From Candidatus Nanosyncoccaceae bacterium (GTDB lineage Bacteria; Patescibacteriota; Saccharimonadia; Saccharimonadales; Saccharimonadaceae), in contig JBMNHQ010000002.1 of NCBI GenBank assembly GCA_050950465.1, forward strand, positions 33,670 through 97,669: DNA of 64,000 nucleotides, in the 5' to 3' direction. This document shows, piece by piece, positions 16,356 to 61,613 of the stretch. The notes beneath the pieces were generated by a model. It was not told where the DNA came from, did no database searches, and saw nothing but the letters and a program-made list of their open reading frames with translations. Position numbers and translations under genes: made by a program. Every line of letters begins with the position of its first letter. Positions within the stretch are counted from its first letter, which is position 1.

Positions 16356-16409
16356 TCTCCATATTACATATTACACAATAAACTTACTTAAAAATCTGTA
16401 CCAAAACCC

Positions 16410-16438: not shown

Positions 16439-16498
16439 AAATGTAGCTACTAAGTGTAGTGTGTAAACAATAAATATTCAGGGGAAGGGTTATCTCTG

Positions 16499-19400
16499 TT
16501 GAAATTAGTTACTCGCAAACTAACTAAGTTTCAACCTAAACTTAAATCAAGTTTTAGGTTAGGGTTTAAGTTTGGCTTCAAGATTCACACTAAACACAAA
16601 ACCTCACAAATATTACGTAGTGGTATTATATTAACTTCTCTTATACTTATTACTTTCTTAACACCCATGTTAAAGAAAACGTTTCAACCTCAAACAGTCA
16701 GTGCTGAAACTGTCACTAAGACTTGGCAGTTAAATCAAAACTCTGGCTATAACTACGACTACAACAACTACGAAATCGAACAAACTGCTACTGGGGCTCA
16801 GCTTAAACAACTACCAAGTTCGATTACTTTAACTGCGGATGAGGATAATTTGCTTGAGAGTTGGGGTCTAAGCGCTGGAACTGGGGTTGTCTCAATTATC
16901 GACGACCCATCTAGTGGCGGCACAGGTAAGGTTTATAGCGCCACTGGTCGTAATACTTTATACTCCAAATTTTATATACCGATTAACCCTGACCTCACTT
17001 ATACCCTAAATGGTAGATTCAAATCAGTTGGGGTGGGTGGGGAATCTAGGATATATTTTGGGCTTTATCCTAGCACTAAGCTCTATAATCAGTATAGTGC
17101 ACATAGTCGTCGCGAATATTTGGCTTTTGGTGATACTGCTACCATTTCTAATTACGACGATTTAACTATTACAGTTCAGCCTAGCGCTGACTTGTCGACT
17201 TGGAACCAGGGTGGGGTTGATGTCAGTCATAGACGCCTCGTAGGCTTTTATTTTGACGGTCAGACCAATAAGCTACCAGATTTTATCATACGCCCTCAGG
17301 GAATGGTTCTGAGTGATGTTGACCCAGCTCAAGGAGCTTATTCGACTGCTAGTGGCACGACTATCAATCTTAACGTACCGATTCCACCAGAAGTGCAGAC
17401 TAAAATAATTGCAGGAACAACTAAAATTAAGAACCATGCGGATGGTGCAGCTTATCTTTATGCGGCAGCCTATAACTCATTAGTTCCCACGTCGTCGTAT
17501 GCCAACTTTTCTGGTGCTGTAACTGGCACAAATACTAATTTAATTATTGCACACAATCTGTTTCCTTACGAGACCAATTGGGCGAAAATAGGCCTTATAT
17601 TAAATTATAATCAGGACGAAAACTTCACTACTAACTTCGACGACATCTCTCTCACCATCACTGGCTCTCAACCAATGTATTCATGGCAGTCACCAGCTAT
17701 TGGGCCACCATATAGTCAGTATGTCAGTGGCCAACTAATATCCATGAGTCATACCCTTGGTTCTGGCTCATCAGACAGTGTTAAATACCAAATCTCATTA
17801 GATGATGGCAAAAGTTGGTTGTATTACAACACAACCACTAACGCCTGGGAAAGTGACCTGTCTCAGCACATAGCTAACACAGAGAACCTTTATAGTACTC
17901 CTCTTATTCGTGACCATGGTGCTAACAAAGCCAATACTATCGACGAAATCAACGCTAACCTAAACAAATTACCAGCTACCGATGGTATCAAATTCAAATG
18001 GCGAGCCTTCCTAGAATCCAACGGCACACAGCAAGTTGAACTCCAATCAGTTACCCTTACGGCTAATAACCTTGATCCAACTATCACATCCGTCACACCT
18101 AGCATTGGTCAAACCACTGGTGGTGATACTATCACTATACGTGGCAGTGGCTTCTCTAACGATGAGTTTGAGTACTTTGTTGGTACTTGTGGTATGACTA
18201 AAAGCGGCAAGCTTTACTGCTGGGGTGATAATAGCCGTGGTAAGTTAGGTGATGGTACTTTCGTTTCTCGATCTGACAAACGTCCAATCGCTCAAGGTGA
18301 AGTTCCTATTACCACAATTTTTACACAAATCGTTAATAGCTGGTATCACATGTGTGCCCTTGGCGACGATAACGAAATCTACTGCTGGGGTGACAATCAA
18401 TATGGCCAACTAGGGGATAACACTTATGACAATCGTAATATTCCAACCAAAGTCAACAAAGGTGCTATCCCAGCTGGTGCTAAAATTGCCAGTATCTCGA
18501 CCGGCTTTCATCACACTTGTGTCTTAACTCAAGATGACAAAATGTATTGCTGGGGTCTAAATGATACTGGCCAACTGGGTGATGGCACTACCGACAATAG
18601 TCCTCTGCCAGTTGAGGTTAATCGCGGAGCCATTCCTACATCGGTGAGAATTAGAAGTCTACAAACAGGCTGGATGTCTAGTTGTGTCCTAGCGGGCGAT
18701 AATAATGTCTACTGCTGGGGAGACAATCGATACGGCCAGCTTGGTGATGGTACTACTGGCAGTAAGGCATCTCCAGTGCTTTTGTCTCAGGGCCAGCGCG
18801 ATCCGAGCTTTAATATTTCTCAATTATCTACAGGGGCCCACCATGCCTGTATAAAAGACAGTGATAATAAGAGCTACTGCTGGGGATTAAATACCTATGG
18901 TCAACTTGGCGATGGTACTTTGTTCAACAAAACTAGCCCAACAGCTGTTACTCAGGGGGATATGCCCAATCAAGACATTAAGCAAGTTGTGGCTGGTTAT
19001 CGGAATACTTATGTTATTGGCTCCGACGATAAGCTCTATGTCTGGGGACACAATGAACGTGGTTCGGTAGGTGACGGGACTTTTACAAACAGAAGCGCCC
19101 CAACTCTGACTCTATTGCCATATAGCTTGGGCACGGTTGTCAGTATGGATCAGTTTGCCTTTCGTAGTGTCGCTGTTTTGTCTAACAATCAAGTATACGC
19201 TTGGGGAGTAGCCAGTGGCTTTCTTGGCGACATTGTGTCGGGAGATCAACCTCTTCCTGTCCGCGCCAGTCGTTCATCTAACCAAGTCAAATTCGACAAC
19301 ACCTACGCACCCTACGTTGAGCGCATCTCACCATATAAACTACGAGTCAGAAACCCAGCACACGATGAGGGTATAGTAAGTGTCACCGCTACCAACTCCA

Positions 19401-22400
19401 CTGGCGAGACTACCACCAAAGCCGATTCTTACACCTACGAAAACCCCACCACACCAGAGATAACTAGCATCTCACCCAGCGAAGGTCTGATTTACGGTGG
19501 CGAAGAAGTCACTATCACTGGCATTAATTTAGATAATATGAAGTGGAAACAGGTGGCAGCTGGAGGCTCTCATGCTTGTGCTATTGGACTAGATAATAAT
19601 GTTTATTGCTGGGGACTAAACAGCTTTGGTCAACTTGGCAATGGTAACAACAACAACTCTAATATTCCCGTTGCTATTTCCCAAGGTGATATACCTACTA
19701 GTGTGACGATTCAGCAACTCTCGGCTGACAGCTATCATACCTGCGCTCTTGGTTCAGACAATAAAGCTTATTGCTGGGGGCGGAACAATTATGGCCAACT
19801 CGGTGATGGCAATAGTGGTTCTAGCGCTGATAAATCTACTCCAGTCGCCGTTCTTCAGGGCGCCATCCCAACTGGCGTCACCATTCAGCAAATCTCGGTT
19901 GGTGGCTCTCACACCTGCGTCCTTGGTTCAGACAATAAAGCTTATTGCTGGGGAAATAATTACCATGGCCAGCTTGGTAATAACAAGAGTGGTGGTAGTC
20001 AATTCTCGTACGATAATAATATTGATTCTTCAACTCCAGTTGCTGTTATCCAAGATAATGTCCCTACCGATATAGTTTTCCAACAAATTACAGTCGGTGG
20101 CGGTCATACCTGCGCTCTTGGTTCAGATAATAAAGCTTATTGCTGGGGGAGTAATAGTAATGGTCAGCTTGGTGATGGCACTACTAATAACAAAACCACT
20201 CCAGTCGCCGTTCTTCAGGGCGCCATCCCAACTGGCGTCACTATCCAGCAACTCTCGGCTGGCACCTCTCATACCTGCGCTCTTGGTTCAGACAATAAAG
20301 CTTATTGCTGGGGGCGGAACAATTATGGCCAACTCGGTGATGGCAATAGTGGTTCTAGCGCTGATAAATCTACTCCAGTCGCCGTTCTTCAGGGCGCCAT
20401 CCCAACTGGCGTCACCATTCAGCAAATCTTGGTTGGCACCTCTCACACCTGCGCTCTTGGTTCAGACAATAAAGCTTATTGCTGGGGATTTAATTGGGGT
20501 GGTCAGCTTGGTGATGGCACTACTAATAACAAAACCACTCCAGTCGCCGTTCTTCAGGGCGCCATCCCAACTGGCGTCACCATTCAGCAAATCTTGGTTG
20601 GCACCTCTCACACCTGCGCTCTTGGTTCAGACAATAAAGCTTATTGCTGGGGGAATAATAATAACGGTCAGCTTGGTGATAGCACTATAACCAACCGTAT
20701 TACTCCAGTACCTGTTAAAACCGCCAATTATTCGGTTGCTTTCGGTGATATTTCAACTCAACAAATTGTCTCATTAGTTAATACTCAAGTGAAAGTTGTT
20801 GCGCCAGCTCATCAATTTGGTGTCAAAGATATTAGTTTGACTCATACTATAATGAATCATACGAGTAGCACATTATCCAGTGCGTATAACTATATTAATC
20901 CGTCAGCACCTGTAATTGCGTCAGTTAATCCTAAAACTGGAGTGTCTGCTGGTAACATTAATGCGACAGTTCAAGTTGAAAATTCGTCGAACCTTAAAAT
21001 AGCTGATGATCTTGTGCAAATAACCACTGGCACCTCTCATACCTGCGCTCTTGGTTCAGACAATAAAGCTTATTGCTGGGGGCGGAACAATTATGGCCAA
21101 CTCGGTGATGGCAATAGTGGTTCTAGCGCTGATAAATCTACTCCAGTCGCCGTTCTTCAGGGCGCCATCCCAACTGGCGTCACCATTCAGCAAATCTCGG
21201 TTGGTGGCTCTCACACCTGCGTCCTTGGTTCAGACAATAAAGCTTATTGCTGGGGATTTAATTGGGGTGGTCAGCTTGGTGATGGCACTACTAATAACAA
21301 AACCACTCCAGTCGCCGTTCTTCAGGGCGCCATCCCAACTGGCGTCACCATTCAGCAAATCTCGGTTGGTGGCTCTCACACCTGCGCTCTTGGTTCAGAC
21401 AATAAAGCTTATTGCTGGGGATATAACAATCATGGTCAACTTGGTGATGGCGCTGGTAGTGCTGGTGATTATAAAACCACTCCAGTCGCCGTTCTTCAGG
21501 GCGCCATCCCAACTGGCGTCACTATCCAGCAACTCTCGGCTGGCACCTCTCATACCTGCGCTCTTGGTTCAGACAATAAAGTATATTGCTGGGGATACAA
21601 CTTTCTTGGTCAACTTGGTGATGGCACCAAGACTAATCGCACCACTCCTGTCGCCGTTTCCCAAGGTGATATACCTACTAGTGTAACGATTCAGCAACTC
21701 TCAGTTGGCAGCAACCATGCTTGTGTTCTTGACTCAAATAACCAGGTTTACTGTTGGGGACATGGTGGCTACGGTCAGCTCGGTGATGGCACTACGATCG
21801 ATAGCACTAGTCCAACTGCCGTTCTTTCTGGTGATATACCTACTAGCGTAACGATTCAGCAAGTTTTTGCTCTCGGAGCAGAAATATACAATGCTTATAC
21901 CTGCGCTCTTGGTTCAGACAATCGTGTCTATTGTTGGGGTTGGAATAGCTACGGTCAACTCGGTGATGGTACTGCTACTCAACGTAATGTCCCTACGGTC
22001 ATCCTTCCGGGTGTTATTCCTATGGATGTTATTTTTCAACAAATTGTTGGTGGCGGTTTTCACACCTGTGCCCTCGACTCAACTGGTAAAGCCTATTGTT
22101 GGGGACACAACGAATATGGTCAACTCGGCACCAACCAAGTAGGCGACCCAGACGATCTCACAGACATCTCAGCCAGTCGTTACACCCCCGCCTATGTCAT
22201 GATGAAGTCCGATCCACTGGAAGTAAGCTTTGGTACCACTGCTGAACACACCGCCGGCACAGCCGGACTAGCTACAGCCGTCTCATCATTCACCGTACCC
22301 GATGGCCAATACTACATCCCAGGCACCACTACACTAACTCTTAACACTCCAGCCCACTCTGTTGGTCCCGTAGCCGTAGTAGTTAAGAACGCTGATGGTC

Positions 22401-22540
22401 AATCTAGCTCTAACACCATCGCCGCTGATGACTCTAATAAGTACACCTACACCAGTGTCCCCGATGCCCCAACTAACCTAACCGCCAATGCTACACCAGT
22501 CACTAACCAAGGCATCAACTACAACATCAATCTAAGCTGA
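16499..22540 (+). CDS. Giant surface protein, copy 1: membrane anchor + beta-rich N domain + three IPT/TIG domains each split by a 7-bladed RCC1 propeller; reading frame stopped by TGA inside the FN3 domain
   Basis: TTG start after GGGGAAGGG. Basic N-terminus plus a hydrophobic helix (IILTSLILITFLTPML). There are 21 RCC1 signatures (YCWGxNxxGQLGDG) arranged 7+7+7, and IPT strands (ITSVTPSIGQTTGGDTITIRGSGF ... VKFDNTYAPYVERISPYKLRVRNPAH..YTY). TGA at 22538-22540. Confidence 0.9.
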   Translation: MKLVTRKLTKFQPKLKSSFRLGFKFGFKIHTKHKTSQILRSGIILTSLILITFLTPMLKKTFQPQTVSAETVTKTWQLNQNSGYNYDYNNYEIEQTATGAQLKQLPSSITLTADEDNLLESWGLSAGTGVVSIIDDPSSGGTGKVYSATGRNTLYSKFYIPINPDLTYTLNGRFKSVGVGGESRIYFGLYPSTKLYNQYSAHSRREYLAFGDTATISNYDDLTITVQPSADLSTWNQGGVDVSHRRLVGFYFDGQTNKLPDFIIRPQGMVLSDVDPAQGAYSTASGTTINLNVPIPPEVQTKIIAGTTKIKNHADGAAYLYAAAYNSLVPTSSYANFSGAVTGTNTNLIIAHNLFPYETNWAKIGLILNYNQDENFTTNFDDISLTITGSQPMYSWQSPAIGPPYSQYVSGQLISMSHTLGSGSSDSVKYQISLDDGKSWLYYNTTTNAWESDLSQHIANTENLYSTPLIRDHGANKANTIDEINANLNKLPATDGIKFKWRAFLESNGTQQVELQSVTLTANNLDPTITSVTPSIGQTTGGDTITIRGSGFSNDEFEYFVGTCGMTKSGKLYCWGDNSRGKLGDGTFVSRSDKRPIAQGEVPITTIFTQIVNSWYHMCALGDDNEIYCWGDNQYGQLGDNTYDNRNIPTKVNKGAIPAGAKIASISTGFHHTCVLTQDDKMYCWGLNDTGQLGDGTTDNSPLPVEVNRGAIPTSVRIRSLQTGWMSSCVLAGDNNVYCWGDNRYGQLGDGTTGSKASPVLLSQGQRDPSFNISQLSTGAHHACIKDSDNKSYCWGLNTYGQLGDGTLFNKTSPTAVTQGDMPNQDIKQVVAGYRNTYVIGSDDKLYVWGHNERGSVGDGTFTNRSAPTLTLLPYSLGTVVSMDQFAFRSVAVLSNNQVYAWGVASGFLGDIVSGDQPLPVRASRSSNQVKFDNTYAPYVERISPYKLRVRNPAHDEGIVSVTATNSTGETTTKADSYTYENPTTPEITSISPSEGLIYGGEEVTITGINLDNMKWKQVAAGGSHACAIGLDNNVYCWGLNSFGQLGNGNNNNSNIPVAISQGDIPTSVTIQQLSADSYHTCALGSDNKAYCWGRNNYGQLGDGNSGSSADKSTPVAVLQGAIPTGVTIQQISVGGSHTCVLGSDNKAYCWGNNYHGQLGNNKSGGSQFSYDNNIDSSTPVAVIQDNVPTDIVFQQITVGGGHTCALGSDNKAYCWGSNSNGQLGDGTTNNKTTPVAVLQGAIPTGVTIQQLSAGTSHTCALGSDNKAYCWGRNNYGQLGDGNSGSSADKSTPVAVLQGAIPTGVTIQQILVGTSHTCALGSDNKAYCWGFNWGGQLGDGTTNNKTTPVAVLQGAIPTGVTIQQILVGTSHTCALGSDNKAYCWGNNNNGQLGDSTITNRITPVPVKTANYSVAFGDISTQQIVSLVNTQVKVVAPAHQFGVKDISLTHTIMNHTSSTLSSAYNYINPSAPVIASVNPKTGVSAGNINATVQVENSSNLKIADDLVQITTGTSHTCALGSDNKAYCWGRNNYGQLGDGNSGSSADKSTPVAVLQGAIPTGVTIQQISVGGSHTCVLGSDNKAYCWGFNWGGQLGDGTTNNKTTPVAVLQGAIPTGVTIQQISVGGSHTCALGSDNKAYCWGYNNHGQLGDGAGSAGDYKTTPVAVLQGAIPTGVTIQQLSAGTSHTCALGSDNKVYCWGYNFLGQLGDGTKTNRTTPVAVSQGDIPTSVTIQQLSVGSNHACVLDSNNQVYCWGHGGYGQLGDGTTIDSTSPTAVLSGDIPTSVTIQQVFALGAEIYNAYTCALGSDNRVYCWGWNSYGQLGDGTATQRNVPTVILPGVIPMDVIFQQIVGGGFHTCALDSTGKAYCWGHNEYGQLGTNQVGDPDDLTDISASRYTPAYVMMKSDPLEVSFGTTAEHTAGTAGLATAVSSFTVPDGQYYIPGTTTLTLNTPAHSVGPVAVVVKNADGQSSSNTIAADDSNKYTYTSVPDAPTNLTANATPVTNQGINYNINLS
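18175..19265 (+). repeat. RCC1 propeller 1 of copy 1 (7 blades, approximate bounds)
   Basis: Seven (Y/V/A)(C/V/A)WG..N..G.LGDG motifs: KLYCWGDNSRG, EIYCWGDNQYG, KMYCWGLNDTG, NVYCWGDNRYG, KSYCWGLNTYG, KLYVWGHNERG, QVYAWGVASG. Confidence 0.85.
19541..20720 (+). repeat. RCC1 propeller 2 of copy 1 (7 blades, approximate bounds)
   Basis: Seven CWG blades. Several are nearly identical at the DNA level to each other and to blades of propeller 3. Confidence 0.85.
21011..22140 (+). repeat. RCC1 propeller 3 of copy 1 (7 blades, approximate bounds)
   Basis: Seven CWG blades, from KAYCWGRNNYG through KAYCWGHNEYG. Confidence 0.85.
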
Positions 22541-23263
22541 ACAGCACCAGTCAGTGATGGCTATAGTCCTATCACTGACTATCTCATAGAGTACTGCATT
22601 AGTAATAGCTCTGGTGTCTGTAACCCATCTCCAGAAGGGGACTGGACTATCTACAATGATGGCACCAGCACTAATACCAGTACTACCATAAGCTCTCTCC
22701 CAGCTAGCCCATCAGCCTACTATACCTTCAGAGTCTCAGCTATTAACAACATCGGCACTAGCCAACCTAGTAACACTCCTACAGTCCAAACTAGCTTCAT
22801 CACACTGTCTTCATCAGTTGACACTGTCACTATTAACATCAACCCATCAGCCAGTGGTAGTACTAATACCTTCTCATCCACTACCCATAATCTCATAGCC
22901 AACTCTAACACCAACTACAACATCACACTATCTATGCCTAGTACCACCCAAACTCTATCCAATGGCACTCACACCATTAACCCCACATCAGCTAATGCCT
23001 CCAATCCTCAATTAGACCTCCCAGCCAACACTTGGGGTTACCGACTCAATAACACTACCTTTGGCACCACTACTACCATAGAGACTAATGTCCCTAATAG
23101 CCAATACACTTGGGCTCAAGTTCAACAGAGCACCACACCAGACCTCATCTACACTGGCACAGGCAATCACACCTTCCCAGTCTACTATGGCTTAAAGGCT
23201 AGCCACACCCAAGCCTCTGGTACCTATACTGGCACTGTTACCTATACAGCTACGACGCAGTAG
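22541..23263 (+). pseudogene. In-frame 3' continuation of copy 1 (rest of FN3 domain + Thr-rich C-terminal domain) cut off by the single TGA
   Basis: There are 723 nt (241 codons) in the same frame as 16499, with no further stop until TAG at 23261-23263. The segment is near-identical to 54015-54737 of copy 2 at a constant offset of 31474. Confidence 0.85.
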
Positions 23264-23379
23264 GGGGCTAGGATAAACAATTTGCGAGTCGTGTTAGATA
23301 ATGGTACGGCCATTGACTTTTTATAGTTTTTGTGATACATTAGAAGTATCTAACAAACAAAAACAAAAAGGATCAATAA

Positions 23380-33510: not shown

Positions 33511-34382
33511 TGAGCTTGTGCTGCGGTGATGTAGTTGGTGCGTTTGATGTTTTTGAAGTCGTTTCGTTGTAATTTCTCAGTAATTAATTTTTGTTGACGC
33601 GGGTCTGATTCAAGGATTAGCCAACCGTTGGGATGGAGATTTCGCTGATCTTTAATTTGATCAATCAGCTGGCTGATTAGAGTTAGTCCATTATCGTCAG
33701 CAAAGAGGGCCGATTTTGGTTCAAATTCAACTTCTGCACCTATCTCCCACGCGGTCGATACATAGGGCAGGTTTGCAGTGATAATGTCATATTTTTCAGT
33801 AATATTTTCCAACAAATTGTTTCGAATAACTTTTGTGTTCATGGCCCCTAGTTTAATTTGATTTTGTCGACAAATCTCTAGTGCCTTTGGGTCTATATCC
33901 GATAAGGTGGTCCTATAAGGTATTTCAAGTTGATTAAGCTCTAATGATAAACTCAAGCCAATTACGCCCGAGCCGCAACCAACATCAGCGATTTTAATTG
34001 GTCGAGCATCAATTGTTTTGGAAATGTTTATAGCTTGCTCGACTAATTCTTCAGTCTCTGGGCGGGGTATTAATACATCTGGCGAGACGATAAAATCATA
34101 GCCAAAAAATTCCTTTTGTCCAGTAATGTATGCCACTGGATAGCTAACAGCTCTTTTTTGCAATAGTCGATTAGCTATTTTTTGTTCGTCTATAGTTAGA
34201 GTTGCTTCTGGATGAGTGTGTAAGTTAATACGTTCTACGTTTAAGACATGGGCTAAAATTAGCTCAGAGTCTAGCTGTGGCGTAACAATACCATTAGACT
34301 TTAAGTACTGGCTAGCTTGCTCGAGCCATTTGCCACGATTAGTGGCTGTCTTCGTCATCATTAGCGATAAGTTCTTGCTCAT
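33507..34382 (-). CDS. prmC: Release factor glutamine N5-methyltransferase PrmC/HemK
   Basis: SAM motif [11 protein letters not shown] and catalytic NLPY (NPPY type). Downstream of, and overlapping, prfA. Confidence 0.85.
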
Positions 34383-35415
34383 AGAGCTTGAGCTTCTCTA
34401 GTAAATCTGCAATATCACCATTCATGGCAGCAGGAATATTGCTGCGGGTATAGCTGATGCGGTGGTCAGTGATACGGTCTTGAGGAAAGTTATAGGTACG
34501 GATTTTTTCACTGCGATCGCCTGAACCAATCAAACTACGCCGCTTACTGCTCAATTTAGCTTGTTCTTCTTCTAATTTAGCTTGAAGCAGGCGACTGCGT
34601 AGGATACTCATGGCCTTAGTCTTATTCTTTATCTGTGATTTTTCATCTTGATTGGCTACAACAATACCGGTTGGTAAATGAGTAATGCGAACAGCTGAGT
34701 CGGTGGTATTAACACTCTGACCGCCGTGTCCACCCGAGCGAAAGACGTCAATTCTCAGATCACTGGGATTGATTTCTATATCGGTTTCTTCGGCTTCTGG
34801 TAAGACTGCGACCGTAACGGTGCTGGTATGAATGCGGCCTTGACTCTCAGTCTCTGGTACACGTTGCACGCGATGTACGCCTGATTCAAACTTGAATGTA
34901 CCATAAGGTTTAACACCATTAATTTTAAAGATCACTTCCTTATAACCACCGGCATCATTAAAACTTTCGCTTAACAGTTCGGTGTGAAAGTTATTTTGTT
35001 CGCAGTAGCGCAGATAAGCTCGGTAAAGTTCGGCTGCAAACAACCCAGCCTCGTCACCACCAGCGCCGGCGCGAATCTCCACCATAGCGTTTTTATTATC
35101 ATTCGGATCTGCGGGAGTTAAAATCTGTGTTAGTTGCTGATTGGTTTGTTTAAGTTTTTGCTCAATTTCCGTTAATTCTTGTTGGGCCAGCTCGGCTAAT
35201 TCGCCATCATCGCTAATCACTAACTTTTGCGTCTCGTCTCTCTGTGTGGTAAGTGATTCACTTTGTTTTACGAGATCTAAGATCTCTGTTAATTCACTCA
35301 AACGACGCATTTTGTTGGCATAGTCAGGGTGATTAAAGGCATTGGGCCCGCTTGAGAAGGCGGTTAGCTTATTCTTCTCGTCTAATAGTTTAGTTTTATC
35401 AATTTGTAATCTCAT
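34339..35415 (-). CDS. prfA: Peptide chain release factor 1
   Basis: PxT-type motif in [17 protein letters not shown] and GGQ in [24 protein letters not shown]. Confidence 0.93.
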
Positions 35416-47430: not shown

Positions 47431-50400
47431 TTGAAATTAGTTACTCGCAAACTAACTAAGTTTCAACCTAAGCTAAATAAAGCAACACAGTTTAGGTTAG
47501 GGTTTAAGTTTGGGTTTAAGTCTAAGGCTAACTCAGTTCAAAGCTCTAGCCCTAACTCTAATCTAAGCCTAAAGACTAATTATGGTTTTAAGATAAAAAC
47601 CAAACACCAAACCAACCAAACCCTAAGACTAGGACTAACACTAGCTTCACTCATACTCATAACCTTCCTATCACCTATACTAAAGAAGACCTTCACTCCA
47701 CACACAACTAACGCTACTACCATAACTAAAACATGGCAGTTAAACCAGAATATTCCCACTCAATACGATTACAACACACATGAAATTGAACAAACCGCTA
47801 CTGGCGCTAGACTAAAACAACTACCAAGCTCCATCACACTTACGGCTGATGAAGAGAGTTTCTTTGATGTGTGGGAGCCATATTATGGCGGTGGGCAAAC
47901 TTCAATAGTTGACGACCCTTCCAGTGGTGGTAATGGTAAAGTGTATAATGTTGCTAATCATGTTCAGCTTTTCTCTAATTTCTTTGTACCAATTAATCCA
48001 GATTTTACTTATACTATAAGTGGAAGATTTAAGTCAGTTGGTGCAGGTGGTGAATCTATGGTGTATTTTGGTCTTGCACCATATGATAAAAATTATTATC
48101 AACCAAACTTTATACAGCGGAGTGATTACCGTGCTGTTGGCGATACGGCCACTATTGCTAATTATGATGATTCAACTATCACAGTTCAAGCTGGCGTAGA
48201 TTTATCGACTTGGAATCAAGGTGGAGTGGATTTAGCTGTTGATCGTTTAATTGGCTTCTATTTTGATGGTCAGACTGACAAATTACCAGATTTTGTCATA
48301 TCGCCTCAAGAGTCTGGTTATTATTATAGTACAGATCCGACTAGAGGGGCTTATTCCACTGCTAGTGGTACAACCATTAATCTTAATACACCGATTCCGC
48401 CTGAAGTGCAGGCTAAAATAAACTTAGATGTAACGAAGATTAAGAATCATATGGGCGACTCTACATATCTTTATACAGCAGCTAAGTCAAAACTTATTCC
48501 CGCTAATATATACACTACCTATTCGGGTAGTATAACTGGCATAAATACTAGCTTGGGTCAAAATATACATAACTCATTCCCATACGAAACCAATTGGGCA
48601 AAAATAGTTATCTTACTCAACTATGGTCAAGATCATAATTATGCTACCAACTTCGACGACATCTCTCTCACTATCACTGGTTCTCAACCAATGTATTCAT
48701 GGCAGTCACCAGCTATTGAGCCACCATATAGCCAATACGTTAGTGGTCAACTAACATCTATGAGTCACACGCTTGGCTCTGGCTCATCAGACAGTGTTAA
48801 ATACCAAATCTCATTAGATAATGGCAAAAGCTGGCTTTATTACAACACGACCACTAACGCTTGGGAAAGTGACTTATCTCAGCGAGTATCAAATAGTAGT
48901 ATTTATCGCATTACTACCATCCGTGACCACGGCGCCCTCAAAGCCAATACTATCGAAGAAATCAACGCCAACTTAAACAAGTTACCAGCCACCGATGGCA
49001 TCCAATTCAAATGGCGCGCCTTCTTAGAGTCCAACGGCACTCAGCAGGTTGAACTCCAATCAGTCACTCTCACAGCCAATAACCTTGATCCAACTATCAC
49101 ATCCGTCACACCTAGCATTGGTCAAACCACTGGTGGTGATACTATCACTATACGTGGCAGTGGCTTCTCTAACGATGAGTTTGAGTACTTTGTTGGTACT
49201 TGTGGTATGACTAAAAGCGGCAAGCTTTACTGCTGGGGTGATAATACTTGTGGCCAACTAGGTGATGGCACTTTTACTAGCCGTTTAGATAAACGACCAA
49301 TCGCTCAAGGTGAAGTCCCAACCACTACAACCTTCACTCAGATTGTTAAAGGCTGGCTACACATGTGTGCTCTTGGCGACGATAACGAAATCTACTGCTG
49401 GGGTGACAATCAATATGGCCAATTGGGCGATGGTGCTTTCGACAACCGCAACATTCCAACTAAAGTCAACAAAGGCGCCATACCAGCCAGTGCTAAAATA
49501 ACCTCTATTTCTACAGCTTATTACCACACCTGTGCTCTAACCCAAGACGATAAGATGTATTGTTGGGGGCAAAATGACCTCGGTCAACTCGGTGACGGTA
49601 CCACTGACAATCGCTCACTACCAGTTGAAGTTAACCGTGGTAATATCCCAACATCAGTTAGAATCAGAAGTCTGCAGACTGGCTGGAAGCATAGCTGTGT
49701 CCTCGCTGGCGATAATAACGTCTATTGTTGGGGTCGAAACACTCTTGGTCAGCTCGGTGATGGTACTACTACTCATAGATCATCTCCAGTCCTTGTAATT
49801 CAAGGTCAGCGTGACCCTAGCTATAATATTACTCAATTATCCGTCGGTGCTCACTATGCCTGTATCAAGGATACTGATAGTAAAGCCTATTGTTGGGGTC
49901 GAAATGTTGATGGTGAATTAGGTAGCGGAATTACATCAAACTACGAAACTAGCCCAGTCGCTATTGCCCAAGGAGTTATGCCTGATCAAAATATTAAAAC
50001 CATCATGGCAGGCTATTGGAGCACTTATGCGATTAGCTCTGATGACAAACTTTATGCTTGGGGGCATAACGGAGACGGTTCCTTAGGTGATGGCACCACT
50101 ATAAATCGCAATACACCAATATTAGTCTCGTTACCGTACAGTTCTGGTGTAAATATCTCTCATACTAATTTCTGGTGGCGCTCTGCTCGAGTTACTGTGT
50201 CTAATGGACATCATTATATTTGGGGATTAAACAATCATGGCCAATTAGGTGATGGCACACAAACTAGCTACCACACACCAACCCACATCCGCTACTCCAC
50301 TAACCAAGTCAAGTTTGGTGACAACTACGCACCACAAGTTGAGCGTATTTCACCATATGAACTGCGTGTCCGAAACCCAGCGCATGAAGCTGGAGTAGTA

Positions 50401-50553
50401 GGAGTAACAGCCACCAACTCAACTGGCGAGACTACCACCAAAGCCGATTCTTACACCTACGAAAACCCCACCACACCAGAAATAACTAGCATCTCACCTA
50501 ACGAAGGTCTGATCTACGGTGGCGAGAAGTCACTATATCTGGCACTAATTTAG
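47431..50553 (+). CDS. Giant surface protein, copy 2, 5' part (anchor, N domain, IPT1 with nested 7-blade RCC1 propeller, start of IPT2), ended by frameshift
   Basis: TTG start in a context identical to copy 1 and collinear with copy 1 throughout. After ...ITSISPNEGLIYGGE the frame runs out (KSLYLALI, TAG 50551-53) because of a 1-nt deletion relative to copy 1. Confidence 0.9.
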   Translation: MKLVTRKLTKFQPKLNKATQFRLGFKFGFKSKANSVQSSSPNSNLSLKTNYGFKIKTKHQTNQTLRLGLTLASLILITFLSPILKKTFTPHTTNATTITKTWQLNQNIPTQYDYNTHEIEQTATGARLKQLPSSITLTADEESFFDVWEPYYGGGQTSIVDDPSSGGNGKVYNVANHVQLFSNFFVPINPDFTYTISGRFKSVGAGGESMVYFGLAPYDKNYYQPNFIQRSDYRAVGDTATIANYDDSTITVQAGVDLSTWNQGGVDLAVDRLIGFYFDGQTDKLPDFVISPQESGYYYSTDPTRGAYSTASGTTINLNTPIPPEVQAKINLDVTKIKNHMGDSTYLYTAAKSKLIPANIYTTYSGSITGINTSLGQNIHNSFPYETNWAKIVILLNYGQDHNYATNFDDISLTITGSQPMYSWQSPAIEPPYSQYVSGQLTSMSHTLGSGSSDSVKYQISLDNGKSWLYYNTTTNAWESDLSQRVSNSSIYRITTIRDHGALKANTIEEINANLNKLPATDGIQFKWRAFLESNGTQQVELQSVTLTANNLDPTITSVTPSIGQTTGGDTITIRGSGFSNDEFEYFVGTCGMTKSGKLYCWGDNTCGQLGDGTFTSRLDKRPIAQGEVPTTTTFTQIVKGWLHMCALGDDNEIYCWGDNQYGQLGDGAFDNRNIPTKVNKGAIPASAKITSISTAYYHTCALTQDDKMYCWGQNDLGQLGDGTTDNRSLPVEVNRGNIPTSVRIRSLQTGWKHSCVLAGDNNVYCWGRNTLGQLGDGTTTHRSSPVLVIQGQRDPSYNITQLSVGAHYACIKDTDSKAYCWGRNVDGELGSGITSNYETSPVAIAQGVMPDQNIKTIMAGYWSTYAISSDDKLYAWGHNGDGSLGDGTTINRNTPILVSLPYSSGVNISHTNFWWRSARVTVSNGHHYIWGLNNHGQLGDGTQTSYHTPTHIRYSTNQVKFGDNYAPQVERISPYELRVRNPAHEAGVVGVTATNSTGETTTKADSYTYENPTTPEITSISPNEGLIYGGEKSLYLALI
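49189..50300 (+). repeat. RCC1 propeller 1 of copy 2 (7 blades, approximate bounds)
   Basis: Seven CWG/AWG/IWG blade motifs, from KLYCWGDNTCG to HHYIWGLNNHG. Confidence 0.85.
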
Positions 50554-50573: not shown

Positions 50574-53500
50574 ATGGCTAAATCAGGTGGACCAACTAAT
50601 CACAACTGTGTTATTGGTCTAGATGGTTGGGTTTATTGTTGGGGGCGTAATGAATCTGGTCAACTTGGTACTGGCGATACCAATAGCCGCTCTACTCCAG
50701 TTGCTATCCAGCGTGGTGAAATACCAGCCGATGCTACTATTGAGTCTCTCTACATTGGTGGACGCCATGGTTGCGTTATTACTGACGCAGGCGATGCTTA
50801 CTGTTGGGGTGAAAACAACTCTGGTCAACTTGGTAACGGTCTATCAGGTGGGAGGGGTGACTCATTTGACCTTGGTATTGATCAGTCTACTCCAGTAGCT
50901 GTCCAACGAGGTATTATACCAACTAACGTTAAATTTTCCCAAATGGCCTTAGGCGGTGATGCTAGCGTCAATGGTTCTCCACCTGAGCACACCTGCGCCC
51001 TCGACTCAGCAGGTCAAGCCTACTGTTGGGGATATAACTACTATGGCCAACTCGGCACTGGTAATACTACTAGCTCCAATATCCCAGTTGCCGTCCAGTC
51101 TAATGACCTTGGCCACGCTCTCTATGGTAAGACTATTACCCAAATCACGGCTGGCTACTCTCACACCTGCGCCCTCGACTCAGCTGGCCAAGCCTACTGT
51201 TGGGGAAATAATTACCATGGTCAACTTGGTACTGGTGTGAGTGGTGGTGTCTCATATTATTATGATGACGGTATTGACTTCAACGTCCCAGTCCCCATCA
51301 AAGCTAATGACCCAACTGACGCTCTCCATAACAAAACCATCACCCAAGTCATAGCTGGTCGGCAGCACACCTGCGCTCTCGACTCAGACGGTAAGGTCTA
51401 CTGCTGGGGGTATAATAACTATGGCCAACTCGGCACTGGTAACGCCACTGACTTCAACGTCCCAGTCCCCATCAAAGCTAATGACCCAACTGACGCTCTC
51501 CATAACAAAACCATCACCCAAGTCATAGCTGGTCGGCAGCACACCTGCGCTCTCGACTCTACTGGCAAAGCCTACTGTTGGGGATATAATCAATATGGTC
51601 AACTCGGCACTGGTAATAGCACTAGCTCCAATGTACCAGTTTCCGTCAAAGCTGACCAACCAACCGATGTTCTCTACGGTAAAATTATTACGCAAATCAC
51701 AGCTGGTGGCTATGACACCTGCGCTCTCGACTCAGCTGGCCAAGCCTACTGTTGGGGATATAACTACTATGGCCGGCTCGGCATTGGTAATAATACTAGC
51801 TCTAATGTCCCACTACTAGTCAAACCAGGCTATCTCATCTACTTTGGTGGTACACCAACTAGCTTGGGTCTCTATCCAACTGGTAATAACACTAAATTAA
51901 CCAGTATTGAACTTAAAGTCATATCTCCAGCTGTCAGTGGACCGGCTACTGTTAATATTACTCTTCACTCTACTACTACCAACACTACCTATAACACCCT
52001 CAACCAAGTCTACACTTTCATTAGTCCACCAACTCCAATTATCACCCAAGTCATTCCTAACGCTGGCTCAGCTAATGGCAATACTGCCATAAGAGCTACT
52101 AACTTATCTAACCTCAAGTTAGCCGATGATTTTACTCAAATTACAGCTGGTGGTAGTCACACCTGCGCTCTCGACTCAGATAATAAAGCTTATTGTTGGG
52201 GAGGTGGCTACTCTGGTCAACTCGGCACTGGTAATACTAACAACTCTAATGTCCCAGTCCTCGTCAAAGCTGATGACCCAACTGACGCTCTCTATGGTAA
52301 AACCATTGCGCAAATCACCGCTGGCAGCTCTCACACCTGCGCCCTCGATTCCACCGGCCAAGCCTACTGTTGGGGGCATAACCAGTATGGCCAACTCGGC
52401 ACTGGTGATACCACTAACTCCAACGTCCCAGTCGCCGTCCAGTCTAACGACCCAACTGACGCTCTCTATGGTAAAACTATTACTCAAATCACGGCTAGCC
52501 AGCACCACACTTGCGCTACTGACTCCACTGGTCAAGCTTACTGTTGGGGAAGAAACGGCTTTGGCCAACTCGGTAATGGCGATACTAACGACTCCAATGT
52601 CCCAGTTCTAGTTGAAGCTAATAATCCAACTGATGCTCTCTATGGTAAAACCATTGCGCAAATCACCGCTGGCACCTCTCACACCTGCGCTCTCGATTCC
52701 ACCGGCCAAGCCTACTGTTGGGGATATAACGGCTCTGGCCAACTCGGCACTGGTGATACCACTAACTCCAACGTCCCAGTCGCCGTCCAGTCTAACGACC
52801 CAACTGACGCTCTCTATGGTAAAACTATTACTCAAATCACGGCTAGCCAGCACCACACTTGCGCTACTGACTCCACTGGTCAAGCTTACTGTTGGGGAAG
52901 AAACGGCTTTGGCCAACTCGGTAATGGCGATACTAACGACTCCAATGTCCCAGTTCTAGTTGAAGCTAATAATCCAACTGATGCTCTCTATGGTAAAACT
53001 ATTACCCAAATCACGGCTGGCACCTCTCACACCTGCGCTCTCGATTCCACCGGCCAAGCCTACTGTTGGGGATATAACGGCTCTGGCCAACTCGGCACTG
53101 GTGATACCACTAACTCCAACGTCCCAGTCGCCGTCCAGTCTAACGACCCAACTGACGCTCTCTATGGTAAAACTATTACTCAAATCACGGCTAGCCAGCA
53201 CCACACTTGCGCTACTGACTCCACTGGTCAAGCTTACTGTTGGGGAAGAAACGGCTTTGGCCAACTCGGTAATGGCGATACTAACGACTCCAATGTCCCA
53301 GTTCTAGTTGAAGCTAATAATCCAACTGATGCTCTCTATGGTAAAACTATTACCCAAATCACGGCTGGCACCTCTCACACCTGCGCCCTCGATTCCACCG
53401 GCCAAGCCTACTGTTGGGGGCATAACCAGTATGGCCAACTCGGCACTGGTGATACCACTAACTCCAACGTCCCAGTCGCCGTCCAGTCTAACGACCTAAC

Positions 53501-54737
53501 TGACGCTCTCTATGGTAAAACCATTGCGCAAATCACCGCTGGCAGCTCTCACACCTGCGCCCTCGACTCCGCTGGCCAAGCCTACTGTTGGGGATATAAC
53601 TACTATGGCCGGCTCGGCACCAAACAATCGGGCATCGACTTATCTATGCAGCGTTACACCCCCGCCTATGTCATGATGAAGTCCGATCCACTGGAAGTCA
53701 GCTTTGGCACTACAGCTGAACACACCGCCGGCACAGCTGGACTAGCCACAGCCGTCTCGTCCTTTGATGTTCCAACTGGTCAGTATTACATCCCAGGCAC
53801 CACTACACTAACCCTTAACACTCCAGCTCACTCTGCTGGTCCCGTAGCCGTAGTAGTAAAGAACGCTGATGGTCAATCCAGCTCTAACACCATTGCCGCT
53901 GACAACTCTAATAAGTACACCTACACCAGTGTCCCGGATAGCCCAACCAACCTAACCGCCAATGCTACACCAGTCACTAACCAAGGCATCAACTACAACA
54001 TCAATCTAAGCTGGACAGCACCAGTCAGTGATGGCTATAGTCCAATCACTGACTATCTCATAGAGTACTGCATTAGTAATAGCTCTGGTGTCTGTAACCC
54101 ATCTCCAGAAGGGGACTGGACTATCTACAATGATGGCACCAGCACTAATACCAGTACTACCATAAGCTCTCTCCCAGCTAGCCCATCAGCCTACTATACC
54201 TTCAGAGTCTCAGCTATTAACAACATCGGCACTAGCCAACCTAGTAACACTCCTACAGTCCAAACTAGCTTCATCACACTGTCTTCATCAGTTGACACTG
54301 TCACTATTAACATCAACCCATCAGCCAGTGGTAGTACTAATACCTTCTCATCCACTACCCATAATCTCATAGCCAACTCTAACACCAACTACAACATCAC
54401 ACTATCTATGCCTAGTACCACCCAAACTCTATCCAATGGCACTCACACCATTAACCCCACATCAGCTAATGCCTCCAATCCTCAATTAGACCTCCCAGCC
54501 AACACTTGGGGTTACCGACTCAATAACACTACCTTTGGCACCACTACTACCATAGAGACTAATGTCCCTAATAGCCAATACACTTGGGCTCAAGTTCAAC
54601 AGAGCACCACACCAGACCTCATCTACACTGGCACAGGCAATCACACCTTCCCAGTCTACTATGGCTTAAAGGCTAGCCACACCCAAGCCTCTGGTACCTA
54701 TACTGGCACTGTTACCTATACAGCTACGACGCAGTAG
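50574..54737 (+). CDS. Giant surface protein, copy 2, 3' part (rest of IPT2 with 7-blade propeller, IPT3 with 9-blade propeller, FN3, C-terminal domain)
   Basis: The frame is open from 50502. Translated from 50526 it reads EVTISGTNLDNFKFKQMAKSGG..., collinear with copy 1 (EVTITGINLDNMKWKQVAAGG...). The ATG at 50574 is internal and has no SD. Contains 16 CWG blades and an FN3 domain (about 53931-54262) with the LSWTAP tryptophan intact. Confidence 0.9.
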   Translation: MAKSGGPTNHNCVIGLDGWVYCWGRNESGQLGTGDTNSRSTPVAIQRGEIPADATIESLYIGGRHGCVITDAGDAYCWGENNSGQLGNGLSGGRGDSFDLGIDQSTPVAVQRGIIPTNVKFSQMALGGDASVNGSPPEHTCALDSAGQAYCWGYNYYGQLGTGNTTSSNIPVAVQSNDLGHALYGKTITQITAGYSHTCALDSAGQAYCWGNNYHGQLGTGVSGGVSYYYDDGIDFNVPVPIKANDPTDALHNKTITQVIAGRQHTCALDSDGKVYCWGYNNYGQLGTGNATDFNVPVPIKANDPTDALHNKTITQVIAGRQHTCALDSTGKAYCWGYNQYGQLGTGNSTSSNVPVSVKADQPTDVLYGKIITQITAGGYDTCALDSAGQAYCWGYNYYGRLGIGNNTSSNVPLLVKPGYLIYFGGTPTSLGLYPTGNNTKLTSIELKVISPAVSGPATVNITLHSTTTNTTYNTLNQVYTFISPPTPIITQVIPNAGSANGNTAIRATNLSNLKLADDFTQITAGGSHTCALDSDNKAYCWGGGYSGQLGTGNTNNSNVPVLVKADDPTDALYGKTIAQITAGSSHTCALDSTGQAYCWGHNQYGQLGTGDTTNSNVPVAVQSNDPTDALYGKTITQITASQHHTCATDSTGQAYCWGRNGFGQLGNGDTNDSNVPVLVEANNPTDALYGKTIAQITAGTSHTCALDSTGQAYCWGYNGSGQLGTGDTTNSNVPVAVQSNDPTDALYGKTITQITASQHHTCATDSTGQAYCWGRNGFGQLGNGDTNDSNVPVLVEANNPTDALYGKTITQITAGTSHTCALDSTGQAYCWGYNGSGQLGTGDTTNSNVPVAVQSNDPTDALYGKTITQITASQHHTCATDSTGQAYCWGRNGFGQLGNGDTNDSNVPVLVEANNPTDALYGKTITQITAGTSHTCALDSTGQAYCWGHNQYGQLGTGDTTNSNVPVAVQSNDLTDALYGKTIAQITAGSSHTCALDSAGQAYCWGYNYYGRLGTKQSGIDLSMQRYTPAYVMMKSDPLEVSFGTTAEHTAGTAGLATAVSSFDVPTGQYYIPGTTTLTLNTPAHSAGPVAVVVKNADGQSSSNTIAADNSNKYTYTSVPDSPTNLTANATPVTNQGINYNINLSWTAPVSDGYSPITDYLIEYCISNSSGVCNPSPEGDWTIYNDGTSTNTSTTISSLPASPSAYYTFRVSAINNIGTSQPSNTPTVQTSFITLSSSVDTVTININPSASGSTNTFSSTTHNLIANSNTNYNITLSMPSTTQTLSNGTHTINPTSANASNPQLDLPANTWGYRLNNTTFGTTTTIETNVPNSQYTWAQVQQSTTPDLIYTGTGNHTFPVYYGLKASHTQASGTYTGTVTYTATTQ
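50580..51830 (+). repeat. RCC1 propeller 2 of copy 2 (7 blades of ~58 aa, approximate bounds)
   Basis: Seven YCWG.N..G.LG.G motifs. The blades carry an extra DPTDAL(Y/H)(G/N)KTI segment not present in copy 1. Confidence 0.85.
52248..53639 (+). repeat. Tandem array of four 348-bp units (two RCC1 blades each) inside propeller 3 of copy 2
   Basis: The AATGTCCCAGT unit starts recur at 52248, 52596, 52944 and 53292, an exact 348-bp period. The two central units differ at only a few bases, and the flanking units are more diverged. Confidence 0.9.
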
Positions 54738-59216: not shown

Positions 59217-60516
59217 AGCTATTGTGATTGCTGGTTATGGGCTAGAAGGGCAGAGTGCTTATAAGTATTTAAGTCGATTATATCCGTCGGCTAAGTTTAC
59301 GATTTATGATCAAAAAGCTACACCCAAGATGCCAATTCCAAAAGGGGTAGAGTTAGTTTGTGGCGATGAGGTTGACTTTGGAGCAATAAAAGCCGATATG
59401 ACTATTAGAACACCGTCGATTTCGCCTAAACGATTTTCTTCCGAGGCTCACGTAACTTCTGTGACGAATCTGTTTTTTGAGCGCTGTCCAGCGCCAATTA
59501 TTGGTGTGACCGGTACAAAGGGTAAGGGTACGACTTGCGGTTTGATTACCGCAATTTTACAGGCGGCAGGTAACACGGTGCATCTAGTGGGTAATATTGG
59601 TAAGCCAGCTCTAGATACCCTAAACCAAATAAAATCGACTGATATTGTAGTCTATGAGCTAAGTAGCTTTCAGTTGTGGGATATGCAATATAGCCCAAAA
59701 GTAGCAGTAGTTCTAATGGTTGAACCTGATCACTTAGACATACATATCGATCAAAAAGAGTATGTTGAGTCCAAGGCTAATTTGCCTCGCCTTCAAGGTC
59801 CGGGTGATATAACAGTTTGCCACCCAACCAATAAATTGTCGAATCAAATTGCTAAAACTAGTCAGGGTAAAATAGTCCATTATGGTGTCGTTGATGACGG
59901 TGGGGCCTATGTTAAATCGAACAATTTTTTTGTTCATAACCAGATGATATGTCCAGTAAGTGATTTGACGATTGTAGGACAACACAATGTTGAGAATGCT
60001 TGTGCAGCAATCACGGCTGTACTTAGTTTTACGTCCAGTTGGCCGGCTATAGCACGGGGTCTAAAAGATTTTACAGGCTTGCCGCACCGTCTAAAATATC
60101 TGCGCACTTTACGAGGCGTAGATTACTATGACGATAATTATTCCACTCAGCCCGAGGCAGCAATCGTGGCCGTACGTGCCATAACACAACCAAAGATTCT
60201 TATCGCTGGTGGTCACGATAAGGGGGCGGACTTTACCCACTTGGCGGATGAAATACAAAAATCCGGTTCGGTTAAAAAAATCTTATTAATTGGCGACACT
60301 GCTAACAAAATTAAAACGGCATTAGAGCGAGTTGGTTTCACAAAAACGGAAATAATTCAGGGGAAAAATCTGAAAGAAATTGTTGTTTTGGCGCAATCGT
60401 ATGCAACTTCTGGGGATGTGGTACTAATGAGCCCAGCTTGTGCTAGTTTTGGACTGTTTCGTGATGCAACTGATCGGGGTGAGCAATTTATTCAAGCTGT
60501 GGCGGAGCTAAAATGA
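59209..60516 (+). CDS. murD: UDP-N-acetylmuramoyl-L-alanine--D-glutamate ligase
   Basis: Mur ligase P-loop GVTGTKGKGTT, central domain DHLD, and C-terminal PHRLKYL...AGGHDKG. Confidence 0.9.
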   Translation: MPKAIVIAGYGLEGQSAYKYLSRLYPSAKFTIYDQKATPKMPIPKGVELVCGDEVDFGAIKADMTIRTPSISPKRFSSEAHVTSVTNLFFERCPAPIIGVTGTKGKGTTCGLITAILQAAGNTVHLVGNIGKPALDTLNQIKSTDIVVYELSSFQLWDMQYSPKVAVVLMVEPDHLDIHIDQKEYVESKANLPRLQGPGDITVCHPTNKLSNQIAKTSQGKIVHYGVVDDGGAYVKSNNFFVHNQMICPVSDLTIVGQHNVENACAAITAVLSFTSSWPAIARGLKDFTGLPHRLKYLRTLRGVDYYDDNYSTQPEAAIVAVRAITQPKILIAGGHDKGADFTHLADEIQKSGSVKKILLIGDTANKIKTALERVGFTKTEIIQGKNLKEIVVLAQSYATSGDVVLMSPACASFGLFRDATDRGEQFIQAVAELK

Positions 60517-61613
60517 GTTTAAAGCAGGTAGCTGAGGCAATCTCTGAGTTAAAAGCTGAGATTTTACAGGCGGTTGGCCAGTTAGAAATTGACGCCAAAA
60601 GTAAAGAATTGGAGTCTTTGGACGCTAGGGTGGCGGACAGTTCAATCTGGAATGATGTCGAAAAGGCTCAGGCTTTGATTCGAAAGACTAACAATTTACG
60701 AGCTCAGATTGAGCCTTGGCAGGTATTAAGAACTCAAATAGTTGATCTGGATGAATTATTAAAAGAGATGGCCGATGAGTCTTTAGAACAGGAATTTACT
60801 AGTCAATTAAAAGGCCTGCAAGAGGATTTTAAAAAACTTAAAACTGACCTGTTGTTTAGTGGCGAATACGATGATCATAATGTTATTTTAAAAATCAGTT
60901 CTGGCGCCGGTGGTACCGAAGCACAAGATTGGGCATCGATGCTAGAGCGAATGTATTTACGTTGGTGTGAACGTTCAAACGTTAAAGCAGAGCTGATTGA
61001 TCGAAGTGTTGGTGAAGAGGCGGGTATAAAAAGCGCCACTTATGGTTTGAGTGGTGTTAATGTTTATGGTCGAATGAGAGGTGAGCACGGTGTTCATCGC
61101 TTGGTTCGTTTAAGCCCTTTCAATGCTGATAATTTGCGACAGACTAGTTTTGCCTTAGTAGAGATATTGCCGGATATTGATACGCCAGATGAAGTTGTGG
61201 TTGCTCCAGAGGATTTAAAGATTGATGTTTTTCGAGCTGGCGGTCATGGTGGACAAAGTGTCAACACGACCGACTCAGCAGTGCGAATTACTCATTTACC
61301 AACAGGATTAGTAGTGGCGATTCAAAATGAAAGGTCGCAATTACAAAATCGTGAAAAGGCTATGCAGATTTTACGTTCAAAATTGATTCAGATGCAGCTG
61401 GAGCAGAGTGCAGCCAGTATTAGTGAATTAAAAGCAACTGAGTCGGCTAGTTGGGGAGCACAAATTCGTAACTATGTCATGCATCCATACACTATGGTTA
61501 AAGATACTCGTACGAAATATGAAGAAAAAGACGTGACGGCGGTGTTGGATGGAAAAATCAATGAGTTTATGATGCGTTATCTGGAGTGGTCGGTGGCAAA
61601 TAGCTTGAAATAA
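60513..61613 (+). CDS. prfB: Peptide chain release factor 2, encoded in one continuous frame (no programmed +1 frameshift)
   Basis: SPF motif in HRLVRLSPFNA and GGQ in [24 protein letters not shown]. The N-terminal domain is contiguous with the rest. ATGA overlap with murD. Confidence 0.93.
   Translation: MSLKQVAEAISELKAEILQAVGQLEIDAKSKELESLDARVADSSIWNDVEKAQALIRKTNNLRAQIEPWQVLRTQIVDLDELLKEMADESLEQEFTSQLKGLQEDFKKLKTDLLFSGEYDDHNVILKISSGAGGTEAQDWASMLERMYLRWCERSNVKAELIDRSVGEEAGIKSATYGLSGVNVYGRMRGEHGVHRLVRLSPFNADNLRQTSFALVEILPDIDTPDEVVVAPEDLKIDVFRAGGHGGQSVNTTDSAVRITHLPTGLVVAIQNERSQLQNREKAMQILRSKLIQMQLEQSAASISELKATESASWGAQIRNYVMHPYTMVKDTRTKYEEKDVTAVLDGKINEFMMRYLEWSVANSLK

Follow-up and report, generated by a model that had tools for sequence, protein, structure and literature searches.

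The window analyzed here, a 64,000-nucleotide (nt) stretch of a Candidatus Nanosyncoccaceae genome numbered throughout from its first letter as position 1, contains two giant paralogous genes for surface proteins built of RCC1 repeats and an FN3 domain, and the first of them (copy 1) is interrupted by an in-frame TGA at codon 2014 of 2254. We consider it likely that this TGA is a recent and real nonsense allele, changed from TGG and still segregating, in one paralog of a lesion-prone, recombining giant surface-protein family. The stop stands where the homologs have a sense codon, TGA is a true terminator in this genome, the syntenic ortholog is intact, and the allele is phased in three assemblies. 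The event is of a known kind and this is a new example of it, an ordinary truncation rather than a recoding signal. In what follows, labels beginning with L denote loci on contigs retrieved from JGI or ENA, and labels beginning with P denote homologous proteins. The features on which the argument depends are the following.

22538..22540, + strand: TGA, derived from TGG (Trp); codon 2014 of 2254 of copy 1, in FN3 strand B
16499..22540, + strand: truncated open reading frame (ORF) of copy 1, 2013 amino acids (aa), NCBI MGI6612334.1
22541..23263, + strand: in-frame remainder of copy 1, 240 sense codons and TAG
54012..54014, + strand: homologous Trp codon TGG of copy 2
22475..23269, + strand: tract nearly identical to copy 2 (53949-54743), a putative gene-conversion footprint

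The codons around the site in copy 1 read AAT CTA AGC TGA ACA GCA CCA (22529-22549). An initial annotation, made from the sequence alone, had placed a TGA here where copy 2 has TGG, and the comparison of the two genes bears this out. It had also counted 241 codons in frame after the TGA. The frame is indeed open, but the true count is 240 sense codons (22541-23260), followed by TAG at 23261-23263, and 241 is reached only when the stop codon is included. The 240 residues encoded past the TGA are 100% identical to those of copy 2. Across 22475-23269, the DNA of the two copies differs at two positions, 22540 (A in copy 1, G in copy 2) and 22570 (T in copy 1, A at 54044 in copy 2; synonymous), and the exact repeat is 699 nt long (22571-23269). 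The adjoining upstream segment, 22180-22474, contains 31 differences, mainly at third codon positions, and on the other side the identity collapses 6 nt beyond the stop codon. The remainder of the two genes, which lie 31.5 kb apart in the same orientation, is ~77% identical; the "copies" are diverged paralogs with homogenized ends.

The mutated codon is that of the conserved strand-B tryptophan of the FN3 domain, as the initial annotation had proposed. The Pfam fn3 family matched both copy 2 (E = 4.3e-9) and the copy-1 tail (E = 7.7e-6), and an AlphaFold model of the domain (predicted local distance difference test score, pLDDT, 88) gave Foldseek matches to the FN3 domains of titin and myomesin with E values of ~1e-5. 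The Trp column is kept in the cleanly aligned FN3-bearing homologs P0024, P0025, P0026 and P0036. P0027 reads LAWNAP, but a 13-residue insertion displaces its alignment at the Trp site. Release factor 2 (RF2) would terminate translation of copy 1 at codon 2014, giving a 2013-aa protein with the N-terminal anchor and all RCC1 propellers. Judged from the reading frame, this product would lose most of its single FN3 domain and a conserved 160-aa C-terminal domain.

Assemblies and haplotypes at the TGA site

The TGA is supported at the level of assembled contigs, namely those of the source metagenome-assembled genome (MAG), L007 and L028. L007 (JGI 3300060823, a 236-kb contig) carries the TGA and matches the window over 4905-22697 (17.8 kb) except at six bases. 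L028 (JGI 3300060803) connects copy-1 single-nucleotide polymorphisms (SNPs), by way of the TGA and the complete repeat, with a unique 75-aa ORF and a SpaA gene. In the window, L007 and L028 alike, the A at 22540 is phased with copy-1 bases 66 nt upstream and 30 nt downstream. The TGA allele is real and is located at the copy-1 locus. The six mismatches between the MAG and L007 cluster at 20430-20455, within an internal RCC1 repeat, and point to either intragenic conversion or ambiguous assembly of the repeat.

The initial annotation had allowed for an error of assembly or consensus, under which copy 1 would truly read TGG and the A would be due to reads that were wrong or wrongly placed. The site does lie within ~0.8 kb of nearly identical repeated sequence, in which contigs from short reads end or are wrongly joined, and the source sequence is a MAG. 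However, the TGA is present in no other copy in the window, so that collapse of the repeat cannot make it, and L028 extends into unique sequence on either side. Together with the linkage of the A to copy-1 SNPs in all three assemblies, the presence of the TGA in L007 and L028 effectively refutes this option, and we regard it as highly improbable. Exact-pattern scans for the site (with N at 22540 and 22570) in metagenome and genome contig collections gave no match; these collections evidently lack the relevant samples or species.

The homologous site is TGG in copy 2 and in L020, L021, L024, L083 and L091. L020 (ENA ERZ2647956, NODE_24), from a sister lineage, contains an intact syntenic ortholog of 2340 aa upstream of the same 75-aa and SpaA genes, and L021 is the 3′ end of the second paralog of that sister genome. 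By this comparison, the TGA is the derived state, reached from TGG by a G-to-A transition.

Local haplotypes were typed at 20 diagnostic positions, with contigs anchored in the hpf flank.

H1: copy-1 SNPs, TGA and T22570; window, L007 and L028
H2: copy-1 SNPs, TGG and T22570; L083 (JGI 3300049643)
H3: copy-1 SNPs at 22420-22474, TGG and A; L091, with L082 as a further mosaic
H4: copy-2 SNPs, TGG and A; window copy 2, L012 and L084

Just one of the four local haplotypes carries the TGA. L083 is the same as window 22136-23269 over 1134 nt, the sole difference being G at 22540. Because this un-mutated form of the same copy-1 haplotype exists in another sample, the TGA is polymorphic between samples. 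H2 is a real haplotype: G22540 and T22570 lie 30 nt apart, and at normal k values a de Bruijn graph could not assemble this combination out of the two copies in the window. Two further options of the initial annotation, a fresh nonsense mutation and a population polymorphism, thus both gained support, the former from the TGA in L007 and L028, linked there to copy-1 SNPs, and the latter from the copy-1-type haplotype with TGG in L083.

Several observations weigh against a recent, segregating allele at this locus. The MAG and the JGI contigs perhaps stem from one project and are not wholly independent of one another, and the evidence is at the level of contigs. The TGA is also found on two upstream backgrounds, that of the window and that of a mosaic in L028, and is therefore old enough for one recombination event unless L028 is partly chimeric. 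Positions 1-540 of L028 (~22010-22540) form this mosaic; the part equivalent to 22139-22312 resembles copy 2 or a third paralog, and the sequence is pure copy 1 from 22339 onward. The mosaic part is without the 15-nt insertion at 22144-22158 and has the motif "MMKFDPL" in common with P0025 of the sister genome. Finally, joins across the 699-nt exact repeat are unreliable, and L083 and L012 carry the "wrong" flank, so that H2 could belong to either the copy-1 or the copy-2 locus. L083 (1-1134, sample 3300049643) joins a copy-1-type body to the copy-2 flank, and the copy-1 flank contig of the same sample, L078, starts bare. L012/L073 (1-1871, sample 3300049641) joins a copy-2-type body to the copy-1 flank, and the copy-2 flank contig of that sample, L086, starts bare at the repeat end. 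These joins are either mis-resolved repeats or real recombinants. We did not rely on L012 as a repaired allele at the copy-1 locus; the bare L086 and the mirror-image join of L083 and L078 fit an arbitrary resolution of the repeat.

UGA as a stop codon and the downstream hairpin

Both release factor genes are encoded within the window.

60513..61613, + strand: prfB, release factor 2, which reads UGA; 447.5 bits with NCBIfam TIGR00020 (cut-off 370)
34339..35415, − strand: prfA, release factor 1

TGA closes 9 of the 41 other ORFs of at least 150 aa, and in all nine a back-up in-frame stop follows within 1-17 codons. The Trp codons in the window are otherwise all TGG, and of the in-frame TGAs, only that at 22538-22540 has a long open frame after it. 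None of the Rfam families, including SECIS, reached threshold in the window. From the presence of prfB, the use of TGA at the end of nine other ORFs, the TGG codons for Trp and the lack of a SECIS match, we conclude that UGA is a normal RF2-read stop codon in this organism. The initial annotation, which had called TGA a genuine stop and placed RF2 at 60513-61613, was correct on both points. No tRNA gene was found within the 64-kb window, and no tRNA-Trp gene in any of the retrieved loci.

These results bear directly on the idea that UGA is not a stop at codon 2014, either through an altered genetic code (UGA as Trp, table 4) or through selenocysteine. Trp is the ancestral residue at the site, and reassignment of UGA to Trp has a precedent in Patescibacteriota, where it has been reported only for the family JAKLIH01 of the class Minisyncoccia (PMC13092985). 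However, that reassigned lineage belongs to a different class, and a genome with a prfB scoring above the cut-off, nine further TGA-terminated ORFs with back-up stops close by and TGG for every other Trp does not fit an altered code. For selenocysteine, besides the lack of an Rfam/SECIS match at threshold, the ancestral and homologous residue is Trp and not Cys or Sec. We give this idea almost no weight.

A hairpin begins 8 nt past the TGA, and a twin occupies the same place in copy 2.

22549..22580, + strand: hairpin of 10 Watson-Crick pairs plus a G.U and a G-C pair, with an 8-nt loop
54023..54054, + strand: twin hairpin in copy 2, in which A at 54044 leaves a G/A mismatch

A 91-nt fold at the hairpin had a free energy (dG) of −28.9 kcal/mol (z = −2.4). 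Eight hairpins with at least 10 perfect pairs were found in the window, of which only the twins are in coding sequence; the remaining six lie between genes and look like terminators. By chance alone, about one such hairpin would be expected per window. In the sister lineage (L020 and L021) the hairpin shrinks to 5 base pairs (bp). The stop is followed by A (UGA-A), and A at +4 is also found in three of the nine ordinary TGA terminators.

Functional readthrough would require that the UGA-A context and the hairpin allow Trp-tRNA to decode the stop at a useful rate, so that copy 1 yields isoforms of 2013 and 2254 aa. A near-cognate tRNA would put back the ancestral Trp, the hairpin at 22549-22580 is stable, and T22570 of copy 1 adds a G.U pair that is missing in copy 2. 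Background readthrough of UGA by Trp-tRNA amounts to ~2-4% in an E. coli reporter (PMC10570021), and tRNA-Trp variants with a 4-bp anticodon stem increase UGA readthrough in bacteria (PMC13092985). Against these points, the stop is not conserved, with TGG in all relatives and on the same haplotype elsewhere (L083). The hairpin pre-exists after the TGG of copy 2 and is short in the sister lineage, its number is at about chance level, the A at +4 is shared with ordinary terminators, and RF2 is present. A downstream hairpin is not known to have a stimulatory role in bacterial UGA readthrough. Of the features expected of programmed readthrough, neither conservation of the stop among orthologs nor a site-specific conserved structure was found, and we judge functional readthrough very unlikely.

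It is plausible that a little wild-type full-length protein is made by background Trp readthrough, the remaining option of the initial annotation. Any full-length copy-1 product would arise only through such background decoding by near-cognate Trp-tRNA, with the ancestral residue restored. Nothing in the sequence suggests that this readthrough is programmed, and it would be a by-product rather than a designed feature. The A1 readthrough protein of phage Q-beta offers a parallel, in that UGA is followed by A and near-cognate tRNA-Trp would insert the residue of the intact gene. In Q-beta, however, a conserved stop precedes an essential extension, whereas here the stop is a polymorphic novelty present in no relative.

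Gene conversion and lesions in the giant-gene family

The 3′ ends (~0.8 kb) of the paralogs are 99.7% identical within the window and 100% identical within the sister genome, whereas the same 729 nt are 86.7% identical between the two lineages. Between the tail and its sister-lineage ortholog, the synonymous divergence (dS) was 0.435 and the ratio of nonsynonymous to synonymous divergence (dN/dS) was 0.17; the window paralogs differ by one synonymous change. As far as sequence comparison can tell, the tail appears to have been homogenized by gene conversion, that is, by concerted evolution, in two separate lineages, and the C-terminal module is under long-term constraint. The undecayed sequence past the TGA is weak evidence that copy 1 still functions, because gene conversion would keep even a dead tail clean. 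A young mutation and repeated conversion of the ~0.8-kb end would together account for the pristine tail, which could not decay independently. The initial annotation had argued from the intact frame that the lesion is very recent or not a true null; recency stands, partly on other grounds, but the step from a clean tail is confounded by gene conversion.

The within-genome homogenization and the mosaic haplotypes H1-H4 are what non-reciprocal transfer between paralogs would leave, although some of the mosaics are possibly chimeric contigs. A single expression locus with promoterless silent cassettes was not found; a start codon, an N-terminal anchor and homologous upstream sequence are present in each of the two copies. 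At the 5′ ends (16370-16582 against 47301-47520), which take in ~130 nt ahead of the TTG starts, identity is 90%, and over the next ~2 kb it is just 77%. The starts of the giant genes may be homogenized or constrained like the ends.

Copy 2 is itself damaged, by a frameshift far upstream of the shared tail.

47431..50553, + strand: N-terminal piece of copy 2, 1040 aa, MGI6612361.1, ending at a TAG reached after the frameshift
50525..50526, + strand: site of a 1-bp deletion in copy 2; copy 1 reads GGC GAA GAA GTC and copy 2 GGC GAG AAG TC
50574..54737, + strand: C-terminal piece of copy 2, 1387 aa, MGI6612362.1, with RCC1 repeats, FN3 and the C-terminal domain

The frame of the C-terminal piece is already open upstream of its annotated ATG. 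The same 1040-aa ORF was called on a contig of JGI 3300060680 (L014), which reproduces the copy-2 deletion. Neither giant gene within the window is intact. The near-identity of the copy-1 tail to copy 2 was thus rightly noted at the outset, but copy 2 could not serve as the intact reference for which it had been taken. A programmed −1 frameshift at the copy-2 lesion was rejected, as GGT GGC GAG AAG TCA contains no slippery heptamer.

Lesions of the same kind were found in the sister genome, whose NODE_20 (ENA ERZ2647956) contains at least two further giant paralogs. In one giant RCC1-FN3 paralog on NODE_20 (L026, 9829-10001), a lone in-frame TAA separates pieces of 1266 and 520 aa; the corresponding residue of sibling repeats is Q or R. 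P0025 (370 aa) was considered as another split copy and rejected, its otherwise open 1828-aa frame being interrupted by a run of N. In the ENA contigs, runs of N coincide exactly with the bodies of giant paralogs (L021, 2364-8523; L027, 9268-9734), maybe through masking or as scaffold gaps, and these runs made one giant gene seem absent and another seem split. In copy 1, a stop codon can be reached by 754 single-step routes, of which 199 are transitions, and 38 codons are TGG. Some 40 other genes in the window are without a lesion, and the damage is therefore concentrated in the giant genes. The copy-2 deletion and the TAA of the sister paralog mark the family as lesion-prone, which would fit a huge mutational target under weak or fluctuating selection.

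The same lesions and mosaics could be read as contingency or phase variation, with the paralogs as exchangeable cassettes that lesions switch off and conversion restores or reshuffles, producing ON/OFF and antigenic variants of a host-attachment protein. Each copy in the window carries one lesion, at a different position, and the sister genome adds a third paralog interrupted by TAA. The 3′ ends are homogenized in two lineages, the 5′ ends with their ~130 nt of upstream sequence are similar between the copies, and mosaic haplotypes occur across samples (L028, L082, L091 and L083). However, a substitution and a 1-bp deletion in the non-repetitive GAAGAA do not make a reversible high-frequency switch, and neither lesion lies in a homopolymer or short tandem tract. 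Each copy has its own start and upstream region in place of an expression site with silent cassettes, some mosaics are perhaps assembly chimeras, and neutral decay with ordinary gene conversion fits the same data. We therefore consider phase variation unlikely. A broader version would make the giant RCC1-FN3 genes of Nanosyncoccaceae a conversion-driven variation system for the host-attachment proteins of an episymbiont, with the TGA/TGG difference and the mosaics as snapshots of switching and readthrough as a "leaky OFF" state. The evidence for this version consists of the mosaic contigs, and we regard it as a speculative and decidedly doubtful proposal.

A segregating nonsense allele in one paralog has its closest counterparts in ordinary nonsense alleles and young pseudogenes of bacterial surface genes, with which it shares a single transition that turns a conserved codon into a stop, a derived and segregating state, and the lack of other damage. 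It differs from them in that the tail is shielded by conversion from a paralog, and in that this paralog is itself frameshifted, so that neither of the two window copies is intact. The likeness to Neisseria pilE/pilS, Borrelia vlsE and Mycoplasma genitalium MgPa lies in conserved ends with divergent middles, in higher identity within a genome than between lineages, in mosaics and in defective copies. Unlike those systems, the present one consists of full-length paralogs only, with no expression site fed by promoterless cassettes and no recombination-initiating motif identified, and we do not claim that it belongs to their class.

A premature stop in a MAG that looks "too clean" can thus be real, recent and polymorphic, and a dead tail can look as if selection maintained it when paralogs exchange sequence by gene conversion. 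Pseudogene calling and claims of recoding in repeated giant genes should take both points into account. Saccharibacteria are obligate episymbionts whose attachment factors are poorly known. A giant, N-terminally anchored RCC1-FN3 family that exchanges its ends, differs between samples and frequently suffers single lesions could reasonably be proposed to supply variable host-interaction proteins. The biological point of the finding itself is modest.

Protein architecture and neighboring genes

The copy-1 protein, as read from its sequence, has a basic N-terminus followed by a hydrophobic stretch, which would form the anchor. Its parts are the N-terminal anchor, a ~520-aa stretch that matched no family, TIG domains, many RCC1 repeats, a single FN3 domain and the 160-aa C-terminal domain. 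Giant genes of RCC1 type in Oscillospiraceae (bioRxiv 10.1101/2023.11.21.568195) are alike in encoding very long extracellular proteins composed mainly of RCC1 beta-propeller repeats. Those proteins exceed 10k aa and are described as without membrane anchors, whereas the present ones have 2.2-2.3k aa, an N-terminal anchor, TIG domains, one FN3 and a C-terminal domain found across Saccharibacteria.

The region past the TGA, 22541-23263, encodes most of the FN3 domain and the C-terminal domain, which was modeled confidently as an all-beta fold (pLDDT 90). The C-terminal domain spans 22781-23260 in copy 1 and 54255-54734 in copy 2. A fold search of the PDB with this domain gave no match at E ≤ 1e-3; weak similarity to the fiber subunits EcpA, BPSL1626 and Ena was seen. 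The domain is homologous to standalone signal-peptide proteins of ~200 aa, and relatives of it occur in 44 GTDB genomes, mostly of Saccharibacteria/Patescibacteria. The relatives found in an alignment-based scan of GTDB were distant only (30-40% identity) and uninformative on the Trp codon. In the homolog search, the best matches were sister-genome paralogs with 73-74% identity, and near-identical alleles were not returned.

The gene just 3′ of copy 1 (23639-26155) encodes an adhesin of the thioester-domain/SpaA type with a C-terminal LPKTG and membrane anchor. This gene contains internal repeats of ~110 nt, and the length of its product varies across samples and relatives (838, 739 and 706 aa).

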